Shown here: one piece after another, positions 577 through 25,425 of the stretch
Position numbering within the stretch: position 1 is the stretch's first letter
How the letters are laid out: the number at the start of each line of letters is the position of its first letter
UHGV virus genome: UHGV-0173505
DNA: 32,704 bases
Origin: a virus
Reading direction: 5' to 3' (one strand)
Notes under the pieces: generated by a model
Told to the model about the DNA's origin: nothing
Database searches by the model: none
Seen by the model: the letters and a program-made list of their open reading frames with translations, nothing else
Position numbers and translations under genes: made by a program

Positions 577-1608
577 TCAAAAACTTGCTATTGATGTTGG
601 TAGTGTTGCCAGCGGATTAAACCGTAATGCAGTTTCCAGGTGATCCGGTGCTAGATGTGCGTAACGCATAGTCATTTTTATGTCGTGATGTCCGAGGATT
701 TTTTGCAAAGCAAGGATATTTCCACCCGACATCATAAAATGCGCCGCAAACGTATGGCGCAGAACGTGTGTCAGTTGACCGCGAGGGAGCACGATAGACG
801 TTTTTTCCATCACGGATAAAAATTGAAAATAGCAGTCTGTGAAGAAATTGAACCCATCGAGCGCCATGATCTCTTCGTAAAGCTCTTTACTGATAGGGAT
901 GCTTCTGTTTTTCTTCCCCTTCGTTCTGACAAAGGTAATTCGGTATTTGGTCACCTGTGAGCGGGTAAGGTTTATTGCTTCTCGCCAGCGTGCGCCTGTG
1001 CTTAAGCATATCTTGACTACCAGTGCCAGAATTGGGTCCTGACGTTTGCAATCATCCAGCAGTTCAACAATCTGCTCATGGGTAAGCCATGCCATCTCTT
1101 TTTCTGCGATGGTGAATTTTCGCATGTTCTCCAGTGGGTTTGGATACGACCATTCGCCCAGGCGGGATAGTTCGCTAAAAACACTACTTAGATAGCTTTG
1201 CTCCAGGTTAATGGTGACCGGGCTGGCCCCTTTCTTCCATTTCTCGCTGAAGTAGATCTCACCTGTCAGTCGTTTATCTCGATAATGGGCAAACATTTTA
1301 GATGTGAGATCGGTTGCAAGGGGATTGCCCAGAGCGTCAACCATCAGCAGCAATTTGTCATAGACATGCTGCCCAGCAGTCAGAGATTTACCATGTAGTT
1401 TGAACCATAGCTCAACCACGTCTTTCAGGGTTCGACGATCTACTGATTCGCCCAGCCAGGGCTTTGCTTCGGTTTCTTCCATCGTGTGACGCTCAAAAGC
1501 CAGTGCTTCGCCTTTGGTGGCGAATTGTTTACGCACACGACGCCCACTACGTCCGGCGGGGTAACATTCGCAAAGCCATTTTCCTGTGGTGAGTTTTCGT
1601 ACTGCCAT
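577..1608 (-). CDS. int: Tyrosine integrase, P2/186 type
   Basis: C-terminal R...HxxR...Y catalytic motifs (LRHTFAAHF...MTMRYAHL); start moved to ATG at 1608 (MAVRKL...) with GGAGGG RBS; the track ORF extends further upstream to 1686. Confidence 0.9.
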   Translation of the reverse strand: MAVRKLTTGKWLCECYPAGRSGRRVRKQFATKGEALAFERHTMEETEAKPWLGESVDRRTLKDVVELWFKLHGKSLTAGQHVYDKLLLMVDALGNPLATDLTSKMFAHYRDKRLTGEIYFSEKWKKGASPVTINLEQSYLSSVFSELSRLGEWSYPNPLENMRKFTIAEKEMAWLTHEQIVELLDDCKRQDPILALVVKICLSTGARWREAINLTRSQVTKYRITFVRTKGKKNRSIPISKELYEEIMALDGFNFFTDCYFQFLSVMEKTSIVLPRGQLTHVLRHTFAAHFMMSGGNILALQKILGHHDIKMTMRYAHLAPDHLETALRFNPLATLPTSIASF

Positions 1609-1794
1609 AAAAAATGCCCTCCAATAGAGAGCATTTTTACTGTATGTATAACCAGTGTCAATGTATGAAATCTTGCGACCATACATCTCACTGAAGCCAT
1701 AATGAAGTTGGCTATTTTTTGCTATGTGAGTATGTGACTTTTGCGGTTAGCCTGCGGCTCATTGTTATATTAGGCGCAGATATAAAAGCAAAAA

Positions 1795-9244: not shown

Positions 9245-10144
9245 TTAGAGTTGAAGAATACTTTTAATTCTCATAACTGATCCATCGAAAGTATCGGCTA
9301 TGTGATATATATTTTTTTTGTGGATTCGACTAATCCAAGATGCGGTAGCTTCTTTATCTCTGTCAACTATATAAACATCGGCTTTTGTGTTTTCTATTTC
9401 TGACCATATATGTTTATCATCGGGATTTATTTTAAGGCCAATGATGAATATTTTTGATGATTTTGAAATTTCTGTTTGAAAATCTTTTTGCTGGTTCGCA
9501 ATAAATGAAGGGCAGTGCAGAACAGTTTTGTTAGGATGGTACATTGCGACAGCTGGCGAAAGTGCGGTGTTACTTTTACAGTAATTTATTATCTTTTCAG
9601 CATTGTCATAGATGTCGATGGGACCCTCAAATATTGCATAACTTTTATCGTTAGGGATTTCAAATCTAAGATTAAAGATATTAGCACGTGGTATGAAGTT
9701 TACGGAACCGTGGATTTTTAATACTGGGATATTTTTTGGGATTCGTTCAGATGAACAGTATTGAATTAAATGTCCGACAGATGAAATAGCTTGCTCAATA
9801 AGTAAGTCATAATTTGTTGTTGCAACGCAAATGCTTTTCCTTTTTTTTAACATTTTGAATAATTTGATATATGTATTCCCTTCGTCAATAGTGAAATTTG
9901 CAAGGTAGGAACACATTTGTTTAAGTAATTCAGTTGTATCACTATTTCTTTCTTCGAAAAACCTGATCATACCTTTCTCAGGATCATCAATGAAACAATT
10001 CAAAAGGTCCCCTTCAATCGTTGAGGCGATACCGCCTTCTTCCCTCATTTTCAGGAGCAAATCTCTTCCTAAAGGTGGATTCGTTGGTTTGCATGGACCA
10101 CTGCCATAACTTGCACCTGCGCCGAATAAAAATAGAACTCCCAT
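9245..10144 (-). CDS. Standalone SIR2-like (sirtuin-fold, putative NAD-binding) protein; candidate anti-phage defence gene
   Basis: Ordered motifs FLFGAGASYGSG, TTNYD, KIHGS, FIIGLKINPDD match the GAGxS...TxNxD...HG pattern; start at ATG 10144 with GGAGG RBS (alternative ATG 10171); AT-rich. Confidence 0.6.
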   Translation of the reverse strand: MGVLFLFGAGASYGSGPCKPTNPPLGRDLLLKMREEGGIASTIEGDLLNCFIDDPEKGMIRFFEERNSDTTELLKQMCSYLANFTIDEGNTYIKLFKMLKKRKSICVATTNYDLLIEQAISSVGHLIQYCSSERIPKNIPVLKIHGSVNFIPRANIFNLRFEIPNDKSYAIFEGPIDIYDNAEKIINYCKSNTALSPAVAMYHPNKTVLHCPSFIANQQKDFQTEISKSSKIFIIGLKINPDDKHIWSEIENTKADVYIVDRDKEATASWISRIHKKNIYHIADTFDGSVMRIKSILQL

Positions 10145-10351
10145 GTAACCTCCAGCTTGTTGATTGAGCATGGGGTATTCTGCTTATTTTTGAGCGTAAT
10201 CTCTAGAACAAAATGAGCATATAAGCTTGCAAGTCTATGCCGCATGAATCCGCATGATCGTTTGAGGATTGTTTTAGCTGAGGTCCGCCAGGAATGGCGG
10301 GCTTTTGCTTATGTCATGCAGGTGCATGAAAACCACTACACAAAGCGGGCA

Positions 10352-21190: not shown

Positions 21191-21788
21191 TCTGCTGCCA
21201 CCGGGTTCAACACCACTGGAGCGCCGACTGGCGCAAACCTGCAGCGGGATTTCTGATCTGCAGGTGCCGCTTCGTGACTTGTGGAATCCGGCAACCTGTC
21301 CGGTCAGTTTCCTGCCTTATCTCGCCTGGGCGTTCTCTGTGGATCGCTGGGACGAGGGCTGGACAGAAAGCGTCAAGCGCCAGGTGGTGAAGGATGCTTT
21401 TTATATTCATCAGCATAAAGGGACCACCAGTGCCGTGCGGCGGGTGGTGGAGCCGTTCGGATTCCTGATCCGCATTATTGAGTGGTGGCAGACCGGAGAA
21501 ACACCGGGCACGTTTCGCCTGGATATCGGCGTGCAGGACCAGGGCATCACTGAAGATACCTATCTGGAACTTGAGCGACTGATAAGCGATGCCAAACCAT
21601 GTAGCCGCCACATGATCGGCATGTCCATCAATCTGCAGACCAGCGGCCCGCATTGGGTGGGAGCCGCCAGCTATCTTGGCGAAGAAATCACGATCTATCC
21701 GTATATCAACGAAACGATTATTTCCGGTGGCACCGCGCATGAAGGCGGGGCGGTCCATGTTATTGACACAATGAGAGTGAATCCATGA
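21183..21788 (+). CDS. I: Baseplate / tail-fibre attachment protein I
   Basis: 201 aa between J and H. Confidence 0.75.
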   Translation: MNSLLPPGSTPLERRLAQTCSGISDLQVPLRDLWNPATCPVSFLPYLAWAFSVDRWDEGWTESVKRQVVKDAFYIHQHKGTTSAVRRVVEPFGFLIRIIEWWQTGETPGTFRLDIGVQDQGITEDTYLELERLISDAKPCSRHMIGMSINLQTSGPHWVGAASYLGEEITIYPYINETIISGGTAHEGGAVHVIDTMRVNP

Positions 21789-23299
21789 GCACAAAATTTT
21801 ATACCCTGCTGACGGATATTGGCGCGGCGAAACTTGCCAGCGCCGCCGCGCTCGGTGTGCCGTTAAAAATTACCCATATGGCGGTAGGCGATGGCGGCGG
21901 AACATTGCCAACGCCGGACGCAAGGCAGACAGCATTAGTAAATGAGAAACGCCGGGCTGCGCTGAATATGCTGTACATCGACCCGCAGAACAGCAGCCAG
22001 ATTATTGCTGAACAGGTGATCCCTGAAAACGAGGGCGGTTGGTGGATACGTGAAGTGGGCTTGTTTGATGAGTCCGGGGCATTGATTGCCGTGGGCAACT
22101 GCCCGGAAAGCTATAAGCCGCAACTGGCTGAAGGTAGCGGGCGCACCCAGACCGTGCGCATGGTGCTGATTACCAGCAGCACGGACAATATCATCCTGAA
22201 AATCGACCCTGCTGTAGTGCTGGCAACCCGCAAGTATGTGGATGACAAGGCACTGGAGCTGAAGGTGTACGCGGATGATCAGATGGCAAAACATCTTGCC
22301 GCACCGGACCCGCATTCACAGTACGCGCCAAAAGCCAGCCCGACATTTACCGGAACCCCCAAAGCGCCAACGCCAGCGGCGGGGAATAATACCACGCAGG
22401 TTGCGACCACTGCGTTTGTACAGGCGGCACTGACGGCCCTTATTAATGGTGCGCCAGCCACGCTGGACACGCTGAAAGAAATAGCCGCAGCCATTAACAA
22501 TGATCCGAATTTCAGTACCACCATTAACAATGCGCTGGCACTAAAAGCACCGTTGTCGAGTCCGGCACTCACCGGAACGCCAACAGCCCCCACGGCGGCG
22601 CAGTCGGTCAACAATACACAGATTGCCACTACGGCTTTTGTGAAATCGGCGATTGCAGGAATGGTGGGTTCTGCACCTGCTGCACTGGATACACTGAACG
22701 AACTGGCGGCGGCACTGGGGAATGATCCGAACTTTGCCACGACAATGCTTAATGCGCTGGCAGGTAAACAACCGCTGGACAATACGCTTACCAATTTGAG
22801 TGGAAAGGATGTAGCTGGTCTTCTCACATACCTTGGTTTGGGAGAAGGTTCGGCATTACCCGTTGGTGTGCCTGTTCCGTGGCCTTCAGCCACACCGCCT
22901 ACTGGCTGGCTGAAATGCAACGGTGCGGCTTTTTCTGCTGAAGAATACCCGGAACTGGCAAAGGCTTACCCGACAAATAAATTGCCTGATTTACGCGGTG
23001 AATTTATTCGTGGCTGGGATGACGGACGTGGTGTGGATGCCGGGCGACAATTATTATCTTCACAGGGGGATGCAATAAGAAATATTGAGGGATTCGCAGA
23101 TGGCGGGATCGGCATGTCTTTTGATGCAATCAGAGGGGCTTTTTACGATGCAGGAACACGATCAGCGACAATGGCGAATAACACAACTGCTATAGGCAAA
23201 ACCGATGACCTTGGATTCGACGCCTCTCGTGTCGTGCCAACAGCTAATGAAAACCGTCCACGTAACATCGCCTTTAATTATATTGTGAGGGCTGCATAA
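21785..23299 (+). CDS. H: Tail fibre protein H (constant N-terminal part plus invertible C-terminal variable part, current orientation)
   Basis: 504 aa; C-terminus with the WLKCNGAAFSAEEYPELA...LPDLRGEFIRGWDDGRGVD tail-fibre motif; contains a crossover site at 22821-22846. Confidence 0.85.
   Translation: MSTKFYTLLTDIGAAKLASAAALGVPLKITHMAVGDGGGTLPTPDARQTALVNEKRRAALNMLYIDPQNSSQIIAEQVIPENEGGWWIREVGLFDESGALIAVGNCPESYKPQLAEGSGRTQTVRMVLITSSTDNIILKIDPAVVLATRKYVDDKALELKVYADDQMAKHLAAPDPHSQYAPKASPTFTGTPKAPTPAAGNNTTQVATTAFVQAALTALINGAPATLDTLKEIAAAINNDPNFSTTINNALALKAPLSSPALTGTPTAPTAAQSVNNTQIATTAFVKSAIAGMVGSAPAALDTLNELAAALGNDPNFATTMLNALAGKQPLDNTLTNLSGKDVAGLLTYLGLGEGSALPVGVPVPWPSATPPTGWLKCNGAAFSAEEYPELAKAYPTNKLPDLRGEFIRGWDDGRGVDAGRQLLSSQGDAIRNIEGFADGGIGMSFDAIRGAFYDAGTRSATMANNTTAIGKTDDLGFDASRVVPTANENRPRNIAFNYIVRAA
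22340..22780 (+). repeat. Tandem duplication (two units of about 222 bp / 74 aa) inside tail-fibre gene H
   Basis: ...GTPKAPTPAAGNNTTQVATTAFVQAAL...LDTLKEIAAAINNDPNF... is followed by ...GTPTAPTAAQSVNNTQIATTAFVKSAI...LDTLNELAAALGNDPNF... Confidence 0.6.
22821..22846. promoter_or_regulatory. Left crossover site of the invertible segment (gix/hix-like, TTCTCACATACC-TT-GGTTTGGGAGAA)
   Basis: 26-bp site of 12+2+12 architecture recalled as resembling hix/gix; inner half nearly identical to the inner half of the site at 24636-24661. Confidence 0.65.
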
Positions 23300-23892
23300 T
23301 GAAACCTGTTTTTGATGAAAATGGGCTGGCTACAGTGCCGGGTGATATGCGTTGTTTTTATTATGATGCTGAAACATCTGAGTATACGGGCTGGTCTGAT
23401 GAATATATTAATACTGGCGTAAGTATGCCCGCCTGTTCAACTGGTATTGACCCTGGCGAAAACATTCCGGGAAAAGTGGCTGTATTTACAGGTAAGGGAT
23501 GGAGCCATGAAGAGGACCATCGCAATGAGACTGTTTACTCAATCGAAAATGGCGCAGCTGTTACAGTGGATTATATCGGTGCCATCAAAAACGGTTATGT
23601 CACGCTTTCACCGTTAACGCCATATGATAAATGGGATGGTGAGAAATGGGTGACAGATACTGAGGCACAACACGGTGCCGCAGTAGAAGCGGCAGAAGCT
23701 CAGCGCCAGTCACTGATTGATGCAGCAATGGCTTCCATCAGTCTGATTCAACTGAAATTGCAGGCCGGACGCAAACTGACGCAAACAGAAACAACCCGAC
23801 TAAACATCGTGTTGGATTACATTGACGCGGTGACGGCAACAGACACCAGCACCGCGCCGGATGTCATCTGGCCTGAACTGCCGGAGGCGTAG
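23299..23892 (+). CDS. G: Tail fibre assembly chaperone G (for the current H variant)
   Basis: 197 aa immediately after H; C-terminus ends ...DTSTAPDVIWPELPEA. Confidence 0.75.
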   Translation: MKPVFDENGLATVPGDMRCFYYDAETSEYTGWSDEYINTGVSMPACSTGIDPGENIPGKVAVFTGKGWSHEEDHRNETVYSIENGAAVTVDYIGAIKNGYVTLSPLTPYDKWDGEKWVTDTEAQHGAAVEAAEAQRQSLIDAAMASISLIQLKLQAGRKLTQTETTRLNIVLDYIDAVTATDTSTAPDVIWPELPEA

Positions 23893-24298
23893 GCCATTCA
23901 ATATCTGGAGCACTGGAGGTATCAACCAGTTCCAGTGCGTCCAGATAATCCAGCCACAAATTATATTGCGCCAGTTCCTCACCTTTCAGACGACCAATAG
24001 CCGCTTTACCAGGCCATTGCTTGGTATTCATATATTCGTTGGACTGATTAATCAATTGCTGTTTTTTCAATTCGGCTGCGGCAATCTGTTCCTCATGTGT
24101 TGGTGGTGGAATTTCAGACCATGCAGGAAAACCATTTTCCCCAGCGATACGGATTTTTCCTTTCGGCGGTAATCCGGAAAACTCAATATACACCTGCTCA
24201 TCAACTTCAACAGCATCATCTGGCCATGAATTTACATTGATGTAGTCATCCTTAAGCGCAGGATTCACAAAAATATTTAAAGATGGACTAAAAAACAC
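23864..24298 (-). CDS. Alternative tail fibre assembly chaperone G' (inside the invertible segment, inverted orientation)
   Basis: 144 aa, ATG 24298; C-terminus ...DTSSAPDIEWPTPPAVQAR parallels G; convergent with G, 29-bp 3' overlap. Confidence 0.7.
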   Translation of the reverse strand: MFFSPSLNIFVNPALKDDYINVNSWPDDAVEVDEQVYIEFSGLPPKGKIRIAGENGFPAWSEIPPPTHEEQIAAAELKKQQLINQSNEYMNTKQWPGKAAIGRLKGEELAQYNLWLDYLDALELVDTSSAPDIEWPTPPAVQAR

Positions 24299-24299
24299 A

Positions 24300-24647
24300 T
24301 CACCCTCCTATAGCAACATAACAGCCCGATACAGGATTTGCGGCAGTCGCTACGCTGGAAAAACCACGAAAGCCGCTTTTTGTGATTGCGGAGGCAGATA
24401 GTATTCCGGCACCCGAAGGTGTATGCCCCACGTGGCTGGCAACCATCACGTAGCACGCCGACGGAAAAGCGAAAGGGAAATTGTTTAAATATCCCGCATC
24501 ATCCCCCAGACTTCCCCCAAACTGCCCCACTCCCCACTGGATAATAAGTGGTCTCCGAACGCCAGAAATAATTAATGGAATTGCTACATACCCATTCACC
24601 AACATAGCGCCGGTTGTTGCGCCAGCCAGAGCCAATTCCCCCAAACC
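24300..24647 (-). CDS. Promoterless alternative tail-fibre C-terminal cassette H' (expressed only after inversion fuses it to the constant part of H)
   Basis: Reverse complement from the crossover at 24647 reads in frame with H codons ...TYL/GLGELALAGATTG... for 116 codons to TGA at 24300-24302. Confidence 0.6.
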   Translation of the reverse strand, partial: GLGELALAGATTGAMLVNGYVAIPLIISGVRRPLIIQWGVGQFGGSLGDDAGYLNNFPFAFPSACYVMVASHVGHTPSGAGILSASAITKSGFRGFSSVATAANPVSGCYVAIGG

Positions 24648-24661
24648 AACGTTTAAGAAAA
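24636..24661. promoter_or_regulatory. Right crossover site of the invertible segment (TTCCCCCAAACC-AA-CGTTTAAGAAAA)
   Basis: Inverted copy of the inner half of the left site (GGTTTGGGGGAA vs GGTTTGGGAGAA); about 50 bp upstream of the invertase gene. Confidence 0.6.
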
Positions 24662-24710
24662 TGCAGAGGTAACAGCTAACTGGCATCATCTCCGGTTTTT
24701 ATTCAGGGGG

Positions 24711-25283
24711 ATGATCAGGCTTATTGGCTATGTACGCGTGTCAACAAATGACCAGAACACCGATTTGCAACGTAATGCACTGAACTGCGCGGGATGTGAG
24801 CAGATTTTTGAGGACAAAATCAGTGGCACTAAGTCCGACAGACCGGGGCTGAAAAAACTACTCAGGACACTATCGGCAGGAGACACGCTGGTTGTGTGGA
24901 AGCTGGACAGGTTGGGGCGCAGTATGCGGCATCTTGTTACGCTGATAGAAGAGTTGCGCCAGCGTGGTGTGAATTTCAGAAGCCTGACTGACAGTATTGA
25001 TACCAGTACCCCAATGGGCCGTTTCTTTTTTCATGTCATGGGTGCCCTGGCTGAAATGGAACGCGAACTGATAGTTGAACGTACCAGGGCGGGGCTGGCT
25101 GCAGCCCGTGCTAAAGGCAGAGTAGGTGGACGCCGTCCTAAGTTGACCAGCGAACAGTGGGCACAGATTGGGCGTTTACTCGAGGCCGGAGAATCAAGAC
25201 AGCGTATTGCACTGATTTTTGATGTAGGCGTTTCTACCATTTATCGAAAATTTCCGGCAAATAAGAACAATAAATCTCCCTGA
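24711..25283 (+). CDS. Serine-recombinase DNA invertase (Hin/Gin/Cin/Pin family)
   Basis: 190 aa; N-terminal catalytic motif IGYVRVSTNDQNTDLQ, resolvase core, C-terminal HTH (VGVSTIYRKF). Confidence 0.9.
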   Translation: MIRLIGYVRVSTNDQNTDLQRNALNCAGCEQIFEDKISGTKSDRPGLKKLLRTLSAGDTLVVWKLDRLGRSMRHLVTLIEELRQRGVNFRSLTDSIDTSTPMGRFFFHVMGALAEMERELIVERTRAGLAAARAKGRVGGRRPKLTSEQWAQIGRLLEAGESRQRIALIFDVGVSTIYRKFPANKNNKSP

Positions 25284-25331
25284 ATCAGCTTTATTTTGAT
25301 TATCCCTGAAAGCAGACAAATACCGTCATTT

Positions 25332-25349
25332 TGTGTGAATAACGGTACA
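25332..25349. promoter_or_regulatory. Ogr/Delta-type late-activator site (TGT-N12-ACA) of the FI-operon late promoter
   Basis: TGTgtgaataacggtACA about 86 bp upstream of the FI start; flanks match the P/O site (TTGTGTG...CGGTACAA). Confidence 0.55.
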
Positions 25350-25425
25350 ACTGCGCTTAGCTGTTTGTCAGGCACAATCACTTCAACATAGGGCGAAGCC
25401 TAATCCAATCAGGAGGTTCGCCACT

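Follow-up and report, generated by a model that had tools for sequence, protein, structure and literature searches.

The stretch of DNA analysed here (UHGV virus genome UHGV-0173505; hereafter the window) is the whole of the metagenome contig ENA ERZ1034860 NODE_178, which has a length of 32,704 base pairs (bp) and a depth of ~60x. This report deals with a tail-fibre locus of the window in which a serine DNA invertase gene lies beside a segment of about 1.8 kilobases (kb), bounded by two inverted crossover sites and carrying two alternative tail-fibre ends with their respective assembly chaperones. Emphasis is placed on whether the segment inverts, on the state of the invertase gene and on the relation of the locus to known DNA inversion systems.

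The invertible segment and its two tail-fibre ends

The features of the locus are listed below (aa, amino acids; nt, nucleotides; E, expectation value of the match).

21785–23299, plus strand: H, tail-fibre gene, 504 aa, with Pfam domains Phage_tail_fib and Collar
21785–22832, plus strand: constant N-terminal part of H, codons 1–349; Phage_tail_fib at residues 1–150, E 5e-64
22821–22846, plus strand: left 26-bp crossover site, TTCTCACATACC-TT-GGTTTGGGAGAA, core at 22833–22834
22835–23299, plus strand: variable C-terminus of H (current tip), 154 aa, tail-collar type; Pfam Collar, E 4e-15
23299–23892, plus strand: G, tail-fibre assembly chaperone, 197 aa; Pfam Caudo_TAP, E 3e-26; PHROG 105, E 7e-83
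23864–24298, minus strand: G', alternative chaperone, 144 aa, GTG start; Pfam Caudo_TAP, E 3e-35; PHROG 188, E 2e-61
24300–24647, minus strand: variable C-terminus of H', 115 aa and stop; Pfam Gp53-like_C, E 1e-12
24636–24661, minus strand: right 26-bp crossover site, TTTTCTTAAACG-TT-GGTTTGGGGGAA in the minus-strand reading, core at 24648–24649
24706–24719, plus strand: translation-initiation region of the invertase, with GGGGG at 24706–24710, ATG at 24711–24713, ATC, and AGG at 24717–24719
24711–25283, plus strand: serine DNA invertase, 190 aa as readable and 188 aa in relatives; Pfam Resolvase, E 2e-53, and HTH_7, E 6e-16
24735–24806, no strand assigned: putative Fis-dependent recombinational enhancer, by homology to the P1 enhancer at cin nt +19 to +90

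H is transcribed with the late V-W-J-I-H operon. Its constant part is 95–99% identical in relatives regardless of the orientation of the segment, and is followed in the window by a tip that matches tail collar fibres (PHROG 523, E 9e-76) and, among structures in the PDB, the short tail fibre 9cuy (E 1e-31) and the T4 gp37 tip 2xgf (E 2e-14). The H' tip gave only non-significant matches to solved structures, namely R-type pyocin fibre tips (E 0.028), and G' gave no match in the solved-structure search. The two tips share no similarity detectable by blastp at E≤0.01, and the two chaperones are 36% identical across their C-terminal 72 residues. G' and the H' tip are silent in the present orientation. 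When 22833–24649 is inverted in silico, the reading frame of H runs on as ...TYL/GLGELALAG... for 115 residues and a stop; the H' tip thus joins H in frame at codon 350, giving an intact H' protein of 465 aa, and a single base separates its stop codon (24300–24302) from the GTG of G' at 24298.

The boundaries of the segment were located in two ways. A repeat finder returned 22821–22846 and 24636–24661 as the longest inverted repeat of the interval 21700–25400 (26 nt, 77% complementary, 1789 nt apart), and a scan for a gix/cix-type consensus (TTCTCNNAAACCNNGGTTTNNGAGAA), with at most 3 mismatches allowed, found only these two sites in the 32.7 kb and none in 100 shuffled control sequences. The left site sits within the reading frame of H, where it encodes ..LTYLGLGE... 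The four 12-bp half-sites are TTCTCACATACC, TTCTCCCAAACC, TTCCCCCAAACC and TTTTCTTAAACG. The inner halves (GGTTTGGGAGAA and GGTTTGGGGGAA) match at 11/12 positions, the one difference being a synonymous change in a glycine codon (GGA/GGG), and the outer halves (TTCTCACATACC and TTTTCTTAAACG) match at 7/12. Read inward, both sites have the same TT core, in the inverted orientation that inversion requires.

Several further candidates in the region were examined and rejected. A third crossover site, as in a shufflon, was sought with up to 3–4 mismatches and with a core-only pattern; just the two sites were recovered, together with one chance core-like match at 23302 (2 mismatches). A second inverted repeat (24488–24510 and 24703–24725, 78% complementary) is accompanied by no supporting feature and is taken as chance, as is a terminator-like hairpin at 24678–24697, in the gap that separates the right site from the invertase gene (-5.8 kcal/mol, z = -0.01 against shuffled sequences).

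The original prediction, made from the letters of the window alone, had described this same layout: a serine invertase gene at 24711–25283 adjoining the segment, two inverted 26-bp sites with near-identical inner and different outer halves, the H C-terminus plus G in one orientation and an alternative C-terminus plus G' in the other, the alternative end continuing the H frame to one base before G', and two C-termini of unrelated sequence. The repeat finder and consensus scan, the open reading frames (ORFs) with their Pfam domains, the inversion in silico and the blastp comparison agree with each of these statements.

The way in which these genes are annotated deserves a comment. Beyond the crossover site the frame of the silent H' tip stays open as far as a fortuitous ATG, so that an ORF of 129 aa results (24300–24689, minus strand), and RefSeq describes the equivalent ORF in relatives as a 'gp53-like domain-containing protein' in its own right; in flipped genomes it is the silent Collar tip that is annotated as a separate or partial 'phage tail protein'. 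Such free-standing tip ORFs are annotation artefacts of the switch. The convergent 3' ends of G and G' overlap by 29 nt (23864–23892), and an equal overlap is annotated in all the relatives examined. A search for contigs made up of the segment only, by means of the exact G protein, returned the source contig alone.

Orientation of the segment in related prophages

Both orientations of the segment occur in public genomes. The flipped form of a 3,499-bp sequence, constructed in silico, aligns with E. coli MFDS1019527 from end to end as one unbroken match, at 96.9% identity; complete E. coli genomes covering at least 80% of the query numbered 19 for the sequence as found and 16 for its flipped form. 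Closer comparisons were carried out between prophages drawn from NCBI assemblies that carry the exact invertase protein of the window. In one such pair (loci L009 and L010) the flanks are 99.98% and 99.9% identical and the segment is 99.945% identical but reversed, and a second pair (L008 and L011) is likewise near-identical apart from the reversed segment. Together with the two copies of the E. coli ERP001 assembly described below, the segment is 99.8–99.95% identical and yet reversed in all three comparisons. The single-base differences of the inner half-sites (the synonymous A/G of GGA/GGG) move with the segment and the outer halves stay in place, which confines the exchange to the stretch, core included, that runs from the outer half-site to position 22 of the 26-bp site.

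The complete genome of E. coli ERP001 (NZ_CP063214.1) provides a case within a single culture. Bases 1–25885 of this record repeat bases 4964554–4990420, and the two end copies differ outside the segment by no mismatches but by indels only, with many 'frameshifted' genes; the 25.9-kb duplication is most simply an untrimmed overlap from the circularisation of a long-read assembly. The invertible segment is reversed between the two end copies, so that one culture supplied both orientations. Draft assemblies are also interrupted at the crossover sites. Eight of their contigs (L014 and seven similar places) have their first base at 24651, at a distance of two bases from the right core, and the contig of L012 begins at 24631, five bases outside the inner half-site that belongs to the other junction. 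By our own reasoning, an imperfect repeat of 26 bp would not suffice to break an assembly, and mixed orientations in the reads would.

In the lineage, as distinct from this particular molecule, the segment truly inverts and the exchange takes place at the sites. The original prediction had staked itself, among other things, on the occurrence of more than one orientation and on an uninterrupted H' frame in other isolates. On the first point, both orientations are present among near-identical prophages and in the one ERP001 assembly; on the second, two flipped genomes (L004 and L009) have H' annotated as an intact protein of 465 aa, with G' starting one base after it.

Some of the related loci are damaged. 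In L009 (8770–9238) and L012 (4630–5098), which have an invertase identical to that of the window, gpE and the tape-measure gene are absent (window 27531–30746 is missing) and GpU directly follows the tail assembly chaperone; these prophages are defective and their segment is flipped. In L003 (1501–3006; E. coli MFDS1006657) H is split into two pseudogene fragments, and a frameshift affects the invertase gene of L001 (4461–5019; p13P477T-2, whose circular record of 37 kb was submitted as that of a plasmid).

The invertase, its start codon and alternative explanations

The invertase shares 76% identity with Mu Gin and 79% with P1 Cin, and it matches the structures of Gin (3uj3/4m6f) at E 1e-92 and that of gamma-delta resolvase at 6.5e-34. 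The catalytic serine S11 and the conserved arginine R44 are kept, aligning with S9 of Gin or S10 of Hin and with R43 of Hin, respectively. Residue numbers refer to the 190-aa protein and exceed those of Hin by one, an offset taken from an ungapped match to the DNA-binding domain chain of Hin (1hcr). Residues that contact Fis or the enhancer and are specific to the subclass in Hin, namely K47, K/R48 and K/R51 as well as Q151, R154 and L155 (PMC3798978), have their counterparts in K48, K49, R52, Q152, R155 and L156. Judged by these residues and by overall identity, the enzyme belongs to the Fis/enhancer-dependent Gin/Cin/Pin/Hin subclass, with Cin and Gin as its nearest members.

A putative enhancer is predicted at 24735–24806 by homology. 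The record of P1 annotates the Cin enhancer at nt +19 to +90 of cin, and the corresponding interval of the window is identical to it at 56/72 positions (78%) and to Mu at 53/72; this interval also encodes a conserved protein motif. Two candidate Fis sites (24739–24753 and 24787–24801) match KNNYRNNWNNYRNNM with their centres 48 bp apart, and ATTTG and TAATG lie between them, where the Hin enhancer has ATTTA and TAATG (PMC3798978). The pair of Fis sites was considered as independent statistical evidence and set aside, the pattern being too degenerate, and the homology argument alone was used.

Taken together, these observations indicate that the locus is very probably a two-state, site-specific inversion switch of the Gin/Cin/Pin type in the tail-fibre module of a P2/186-like E. 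coli prophage. The late operon transcribes H from outside the segment, and the first 349–350 codons of H are fixed. Invertase dimers would bind the two inverted 26-bp sites and would be activated by Fis bound to the enhancer in the first ~90 bp of the invertase gene; both sites would then be cut at the TT core and the strands rotated, inverting 22833–24649. In the present orientation H ends in the 154-aa tail-collar-type tip and is followed by chaperone G, and in the flipped orientation it ends in the unrelated 115-aa gp53-like tip, followed by G'. The progeny virions of a lysogen population would thus carry either of two receptor-binding tips, a form of host-range bet-hedging. As the receptor-binding tips are unrelated, the two states may be expected to differ in host range, as the original prediction had also implied. 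The Fis dependence and the switching rate of this copy are likewise properties that we infer.

The start of the invertase gene is unusual. The position of the canonical start codon, which is GTG in Mu gin and ATG in P1 cin and six E. coli relatives retrieved by BLAST, is occupied by AGG in the window. The start of the relatives gives MLIGY..., and the frame of the window from ATG 24711 gives MIRLIGY...; translation thus depends on this ATG, which is the only one in frame, lies two codons before the AGG and abuts the GGGGG ribosome-binding run with zero spacing. The original prediction had named an inactivating lesion of the invertase as grounds for giving it up. In this respect it fared unevenly: the rest of the frame and the key residues are intact and the canonical start is lost.

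Four observations weigh against a switch that works in this copy as described. Initiation at ATG 24711 is probably inefficient, to judge from its context, and expression of the invertase may be low. The source contig, at ~60x, was assembled straight through the segment in one orientation. The paired Fis consensus is degenerate, matching 5 times in the window where 2.45 matches would be expected, and is insignificant when taken alone. Finally, a scan of 2.8 kb revealed no convincing sigma-70 promoter for the invertase: it returned 2 sigma-70-like sites where 4.2 were expected, neither of them placed for the invertase or the silent cassette, a weak result that is at most compatible with the description of that cassette as 'promoterless' in the original prediction.

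The first two of these observations are the basis for an alternative in which this copy has a frozen or almost frozen switch. The T-to-G change at the start would have left too little translation for the enzyme of the prophage itself to invert the segment, and the architecture would survive as a relic fixed in the H(Collar)/G state. The AGG at 24717–24719, the remaining ATG with its zero spacing and the single orientation of the contig are all consistent with it. The distribution of the allele, however, makes this explanation unlikely. The exact 190-aa protein that goes with AGG is present in 79 contigs, and its 188-aa counterpart, which differs only in having the canonical start, in 104; AGG is therefore a common allele and not a private mutation. 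It was found in 8/8 loci fetched by means of the 190-aa protein, and these are divided between the two orientations; among its carriers, the window, L007, L010 and L011 are unflipped and L008, L009, L012 and L013 are flipped, so that the allele is compatible with inversion. Both near-identical pairs that differ by inversion alone (L009/L010 and L008/L011) were drawn from AGG carriers (the ERP001 relative has the canonical start), and several AGG-carrier draft contigs break at the crossover sites. Moreover, the rest of the invertase frame is intact with all key residues present, and the family tolerates some variation in the length of the N-terminus, Hin (MATIGY) being one residue longer than Gin (MLIGY).

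AGG carriers have either a low level of invertase or an activity supplied in trans by another invertase. A second alternative holds that inversion is driven mainly in trans by another member of the Pin/Gin family (PinE of e14, PinR of Rac, PinQ of Qin, or the enzymes of other P2-like prophages). Gin, Cin, Pin and Hin are known from the classical literature to cross-complement one another, up to 9–11 places similar to the locus occur per E. coli genome, and the weakened start codon makes the enzyme encoded in cis a poorer candidate. We nevertheless regard this as rather improbable, given that the family as a whole has kept the adjacent invertase in a conserved and intact form, that the layout of sites, enhancer and gene is canonical and self-contained and that no observation requires help in trans.

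A third alternative, that the opposite orientations arose by homologous recombination or replacement of cassettes between prophages, draws on the mosaic nature of tail-fibre cassettes (L001, L002, L007, L008 and L011 have partly different cassettes between the same flanks) but is hardly credible where near-identical segments are merely reversed (the two pairs and ERP001), the breakpoints lie within the 26-bp sites with reciprocal exchange of the inner half-site polymorphisms, and the sole homology available is an inverted repeat of 12–14 bp.

Returning to the site-specific switch, one tentative and on balance doubtful suggestion is that AGG is more than a neutral polymorphism and represents a widespread natural 'slow-switch' allele. 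With initiation forced to an ATG that lies within the Shine-Dalgarno region, the allele would reduce the supply of invertase and thereby tune the rate of switching, or it would render switching dependent on invertases that other prophages supply in trans. The start-codon allele is in this sense a small curiosity that bears on the tuning of the switching rate.

Known systems and prophage context

The Mu G segment with Gin, the P1 C segment with Cin and the P segment of e14 with Pin are the classical invertible tail-fibre segments. The arrangement of the window follows that of the Mu G segment (constant fibre part, site, tip and chaperone, inverted alternative chaperone and tip, site, invertase outside the segment), and the distance from the right site to the invertase gene is similar. 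The Mu segment differs in its length (~3 kb), in its gix sites, which have a GA core and are identical to those of the window at 18/26 positions, and in that gin starts with GTG where the window has AGG; H, H', G and G' gave no blastp match to Mu S, U or U' at E≤0.01.

P1 is closer in its invertase, in its enhancer interval (+19 to +90) and in its crossover sites, since cixL and cixR have the TT core and an inner half of the form GGTTT..GAGAA (GGTTTAAGAGAA) and are nearer to the sites of the window than gix. In P1, as here, the C-terminus of the tail fibre is exchanged together with an assembly chaperone. The P1 cix sites lie at the ends of long (~0.6-kb) inverted repeats, whereas the repeats of the window consist of the 26-bp sites only. 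Other differences are the length of the C segment (4.2 kb against 1.8 kb), the location of cixL at the 3' end of cin (a gene that in P1 precedes the segment on its upstream side), the unrelated sequences of the tips and chaperones (P1 has Mu-like S/U) and the state of P1 as a plasmid prophage that is not P2-like.

The Hin system of Salmonella flips a promoter, and hin is carried inside the invertible segment. In the window the invertase lies outside the segment and it is a coding 3' end that is exchanged, with no promoter flip. Of the 'Gin/Hin-type' switch named in the original prediction, the Gin part therefore stands, in the sense of a Gin/Cin/Pin-type exchange, and the Hin-type promoter flip does not. 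What the two systems share is the subclass of serine invertase, the 26-bp sites, an enhancer (putative in the window) within the invertase gene and the conserved contact residues (PMC3798978).

A further likeness is with invertible loci of other E. coli P2-like prophages, which have an invertase of the same family and occupy the same place in the P2-type tail module, between I/H and FI. In the enteropathogenic E. coli (EPEC) strain E2348/69, phase variation by inversion was detected in P2-like prophages by deep sequencing and polymerase chain reaction, one locus being a simple two-state switch and another having three repeats with inversions of ~1.8 and 2.2 kb (PMC4272514). The segment of the window, likened to these by description, is similar in size to the ~1.8-kb segment of EPEC and differs from the EPEC mini-shufflon, with its three repeats and four variants, in having two sites and two states. 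Genes for tail fibres, tail protein I and tail-fibre assembly were found to be enriched at programmed inversions in a systematic survey (PMC9881135), and P2-like phages are reported often to have, at their Z/fun hotspot, a DNA invertase along with inversion of the genes next to it (bioRxiv 10.1101/2024.10.15.618418). Public records of the Escherichia phages Cartapus and 500465-1 and the Klebsiella phage KP12 show a 'DNA invertase' by two convergent tail-fibre assembly genes, and something similar to the locus occurs in 3,496 of the 5,426 complete E. coli genomes.

The switch is therefore real but ordinary and already known, a simple two-state version with nothing new in kind and with near-identical copies in thousands of public genomes; the particular pair of cassettes and the AGG start allele are specific to the lineage of the window. 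Its main value is in correct annotation, with little importance beyond: H or H' is often labelled a pseudogene or a partial gene, and the prediction of host range for such prophages should weigh both tips.

With respect to its context, the window contains what its gene content identifies as an integrated P2/186-like prophage (Peduoviridae), in keeping with the P2-like prophage of the original prediction. Pfam families and the ORF map give the P2 order of head, lysis and tail genes (Q P O N M L; V W J I H G; FI FII E T U D), and the early and replication genes include an integrase (577–1686, minus strand), a CI repressor, CII, a Dam methylase and the replication protein A. The DNA is 94–98% identical to that of P2-like Escherichia and Klebsiella phages, and the record of phage Cartapus is classified in the Peduoviridae. 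The CI, CII and Dam families place the prophage with 186 and not with P2 proper. A direct repeat of 27 bp with a single mismatch (ATAAATTTCAG[G/A]CAACAAAAAACCCAT), found by blastn alignment at 102–128 and 32637–32663 at both ends of the prophage and including an exact 15-bp portion at 114 and 32649, is probably the att core. The left flank (1–246) is 98% identical to the rcdA-proximal junction of the E. coli ERP001 chromosome, which points to E. coli or a very close relative as the host; on the other side, the relatives have a ybjL-like Asp-Al_Ex transporter.

Two minor features lie outside the switch. The variable region that separates the replication genes from the portal gene contains a lone ORF of 308 aa (9245–10171, minus strand) with a weak SIR2-like domain (Pfam SIR2_2, E 2e-5; PADLOC models PDC-S25 and SIR2, E 1e-7 to 1e-3). 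This region is a known hotspot of anti-phage cargo in P2-like phages, and the ORF may be regarded as a candidate for a defence function. The invertase gene and the sheath gene FI are 143 bp apart, and a TGT-N12-ACA sequence (TGTgtgaataacggtACA) is located in this gap, at 25332–25349. This is the motif of the P2 late promoters activated by Ogr/Delta, and FI has therefore probably retained a late promoter of its own on the downstream side of the inserted switch.

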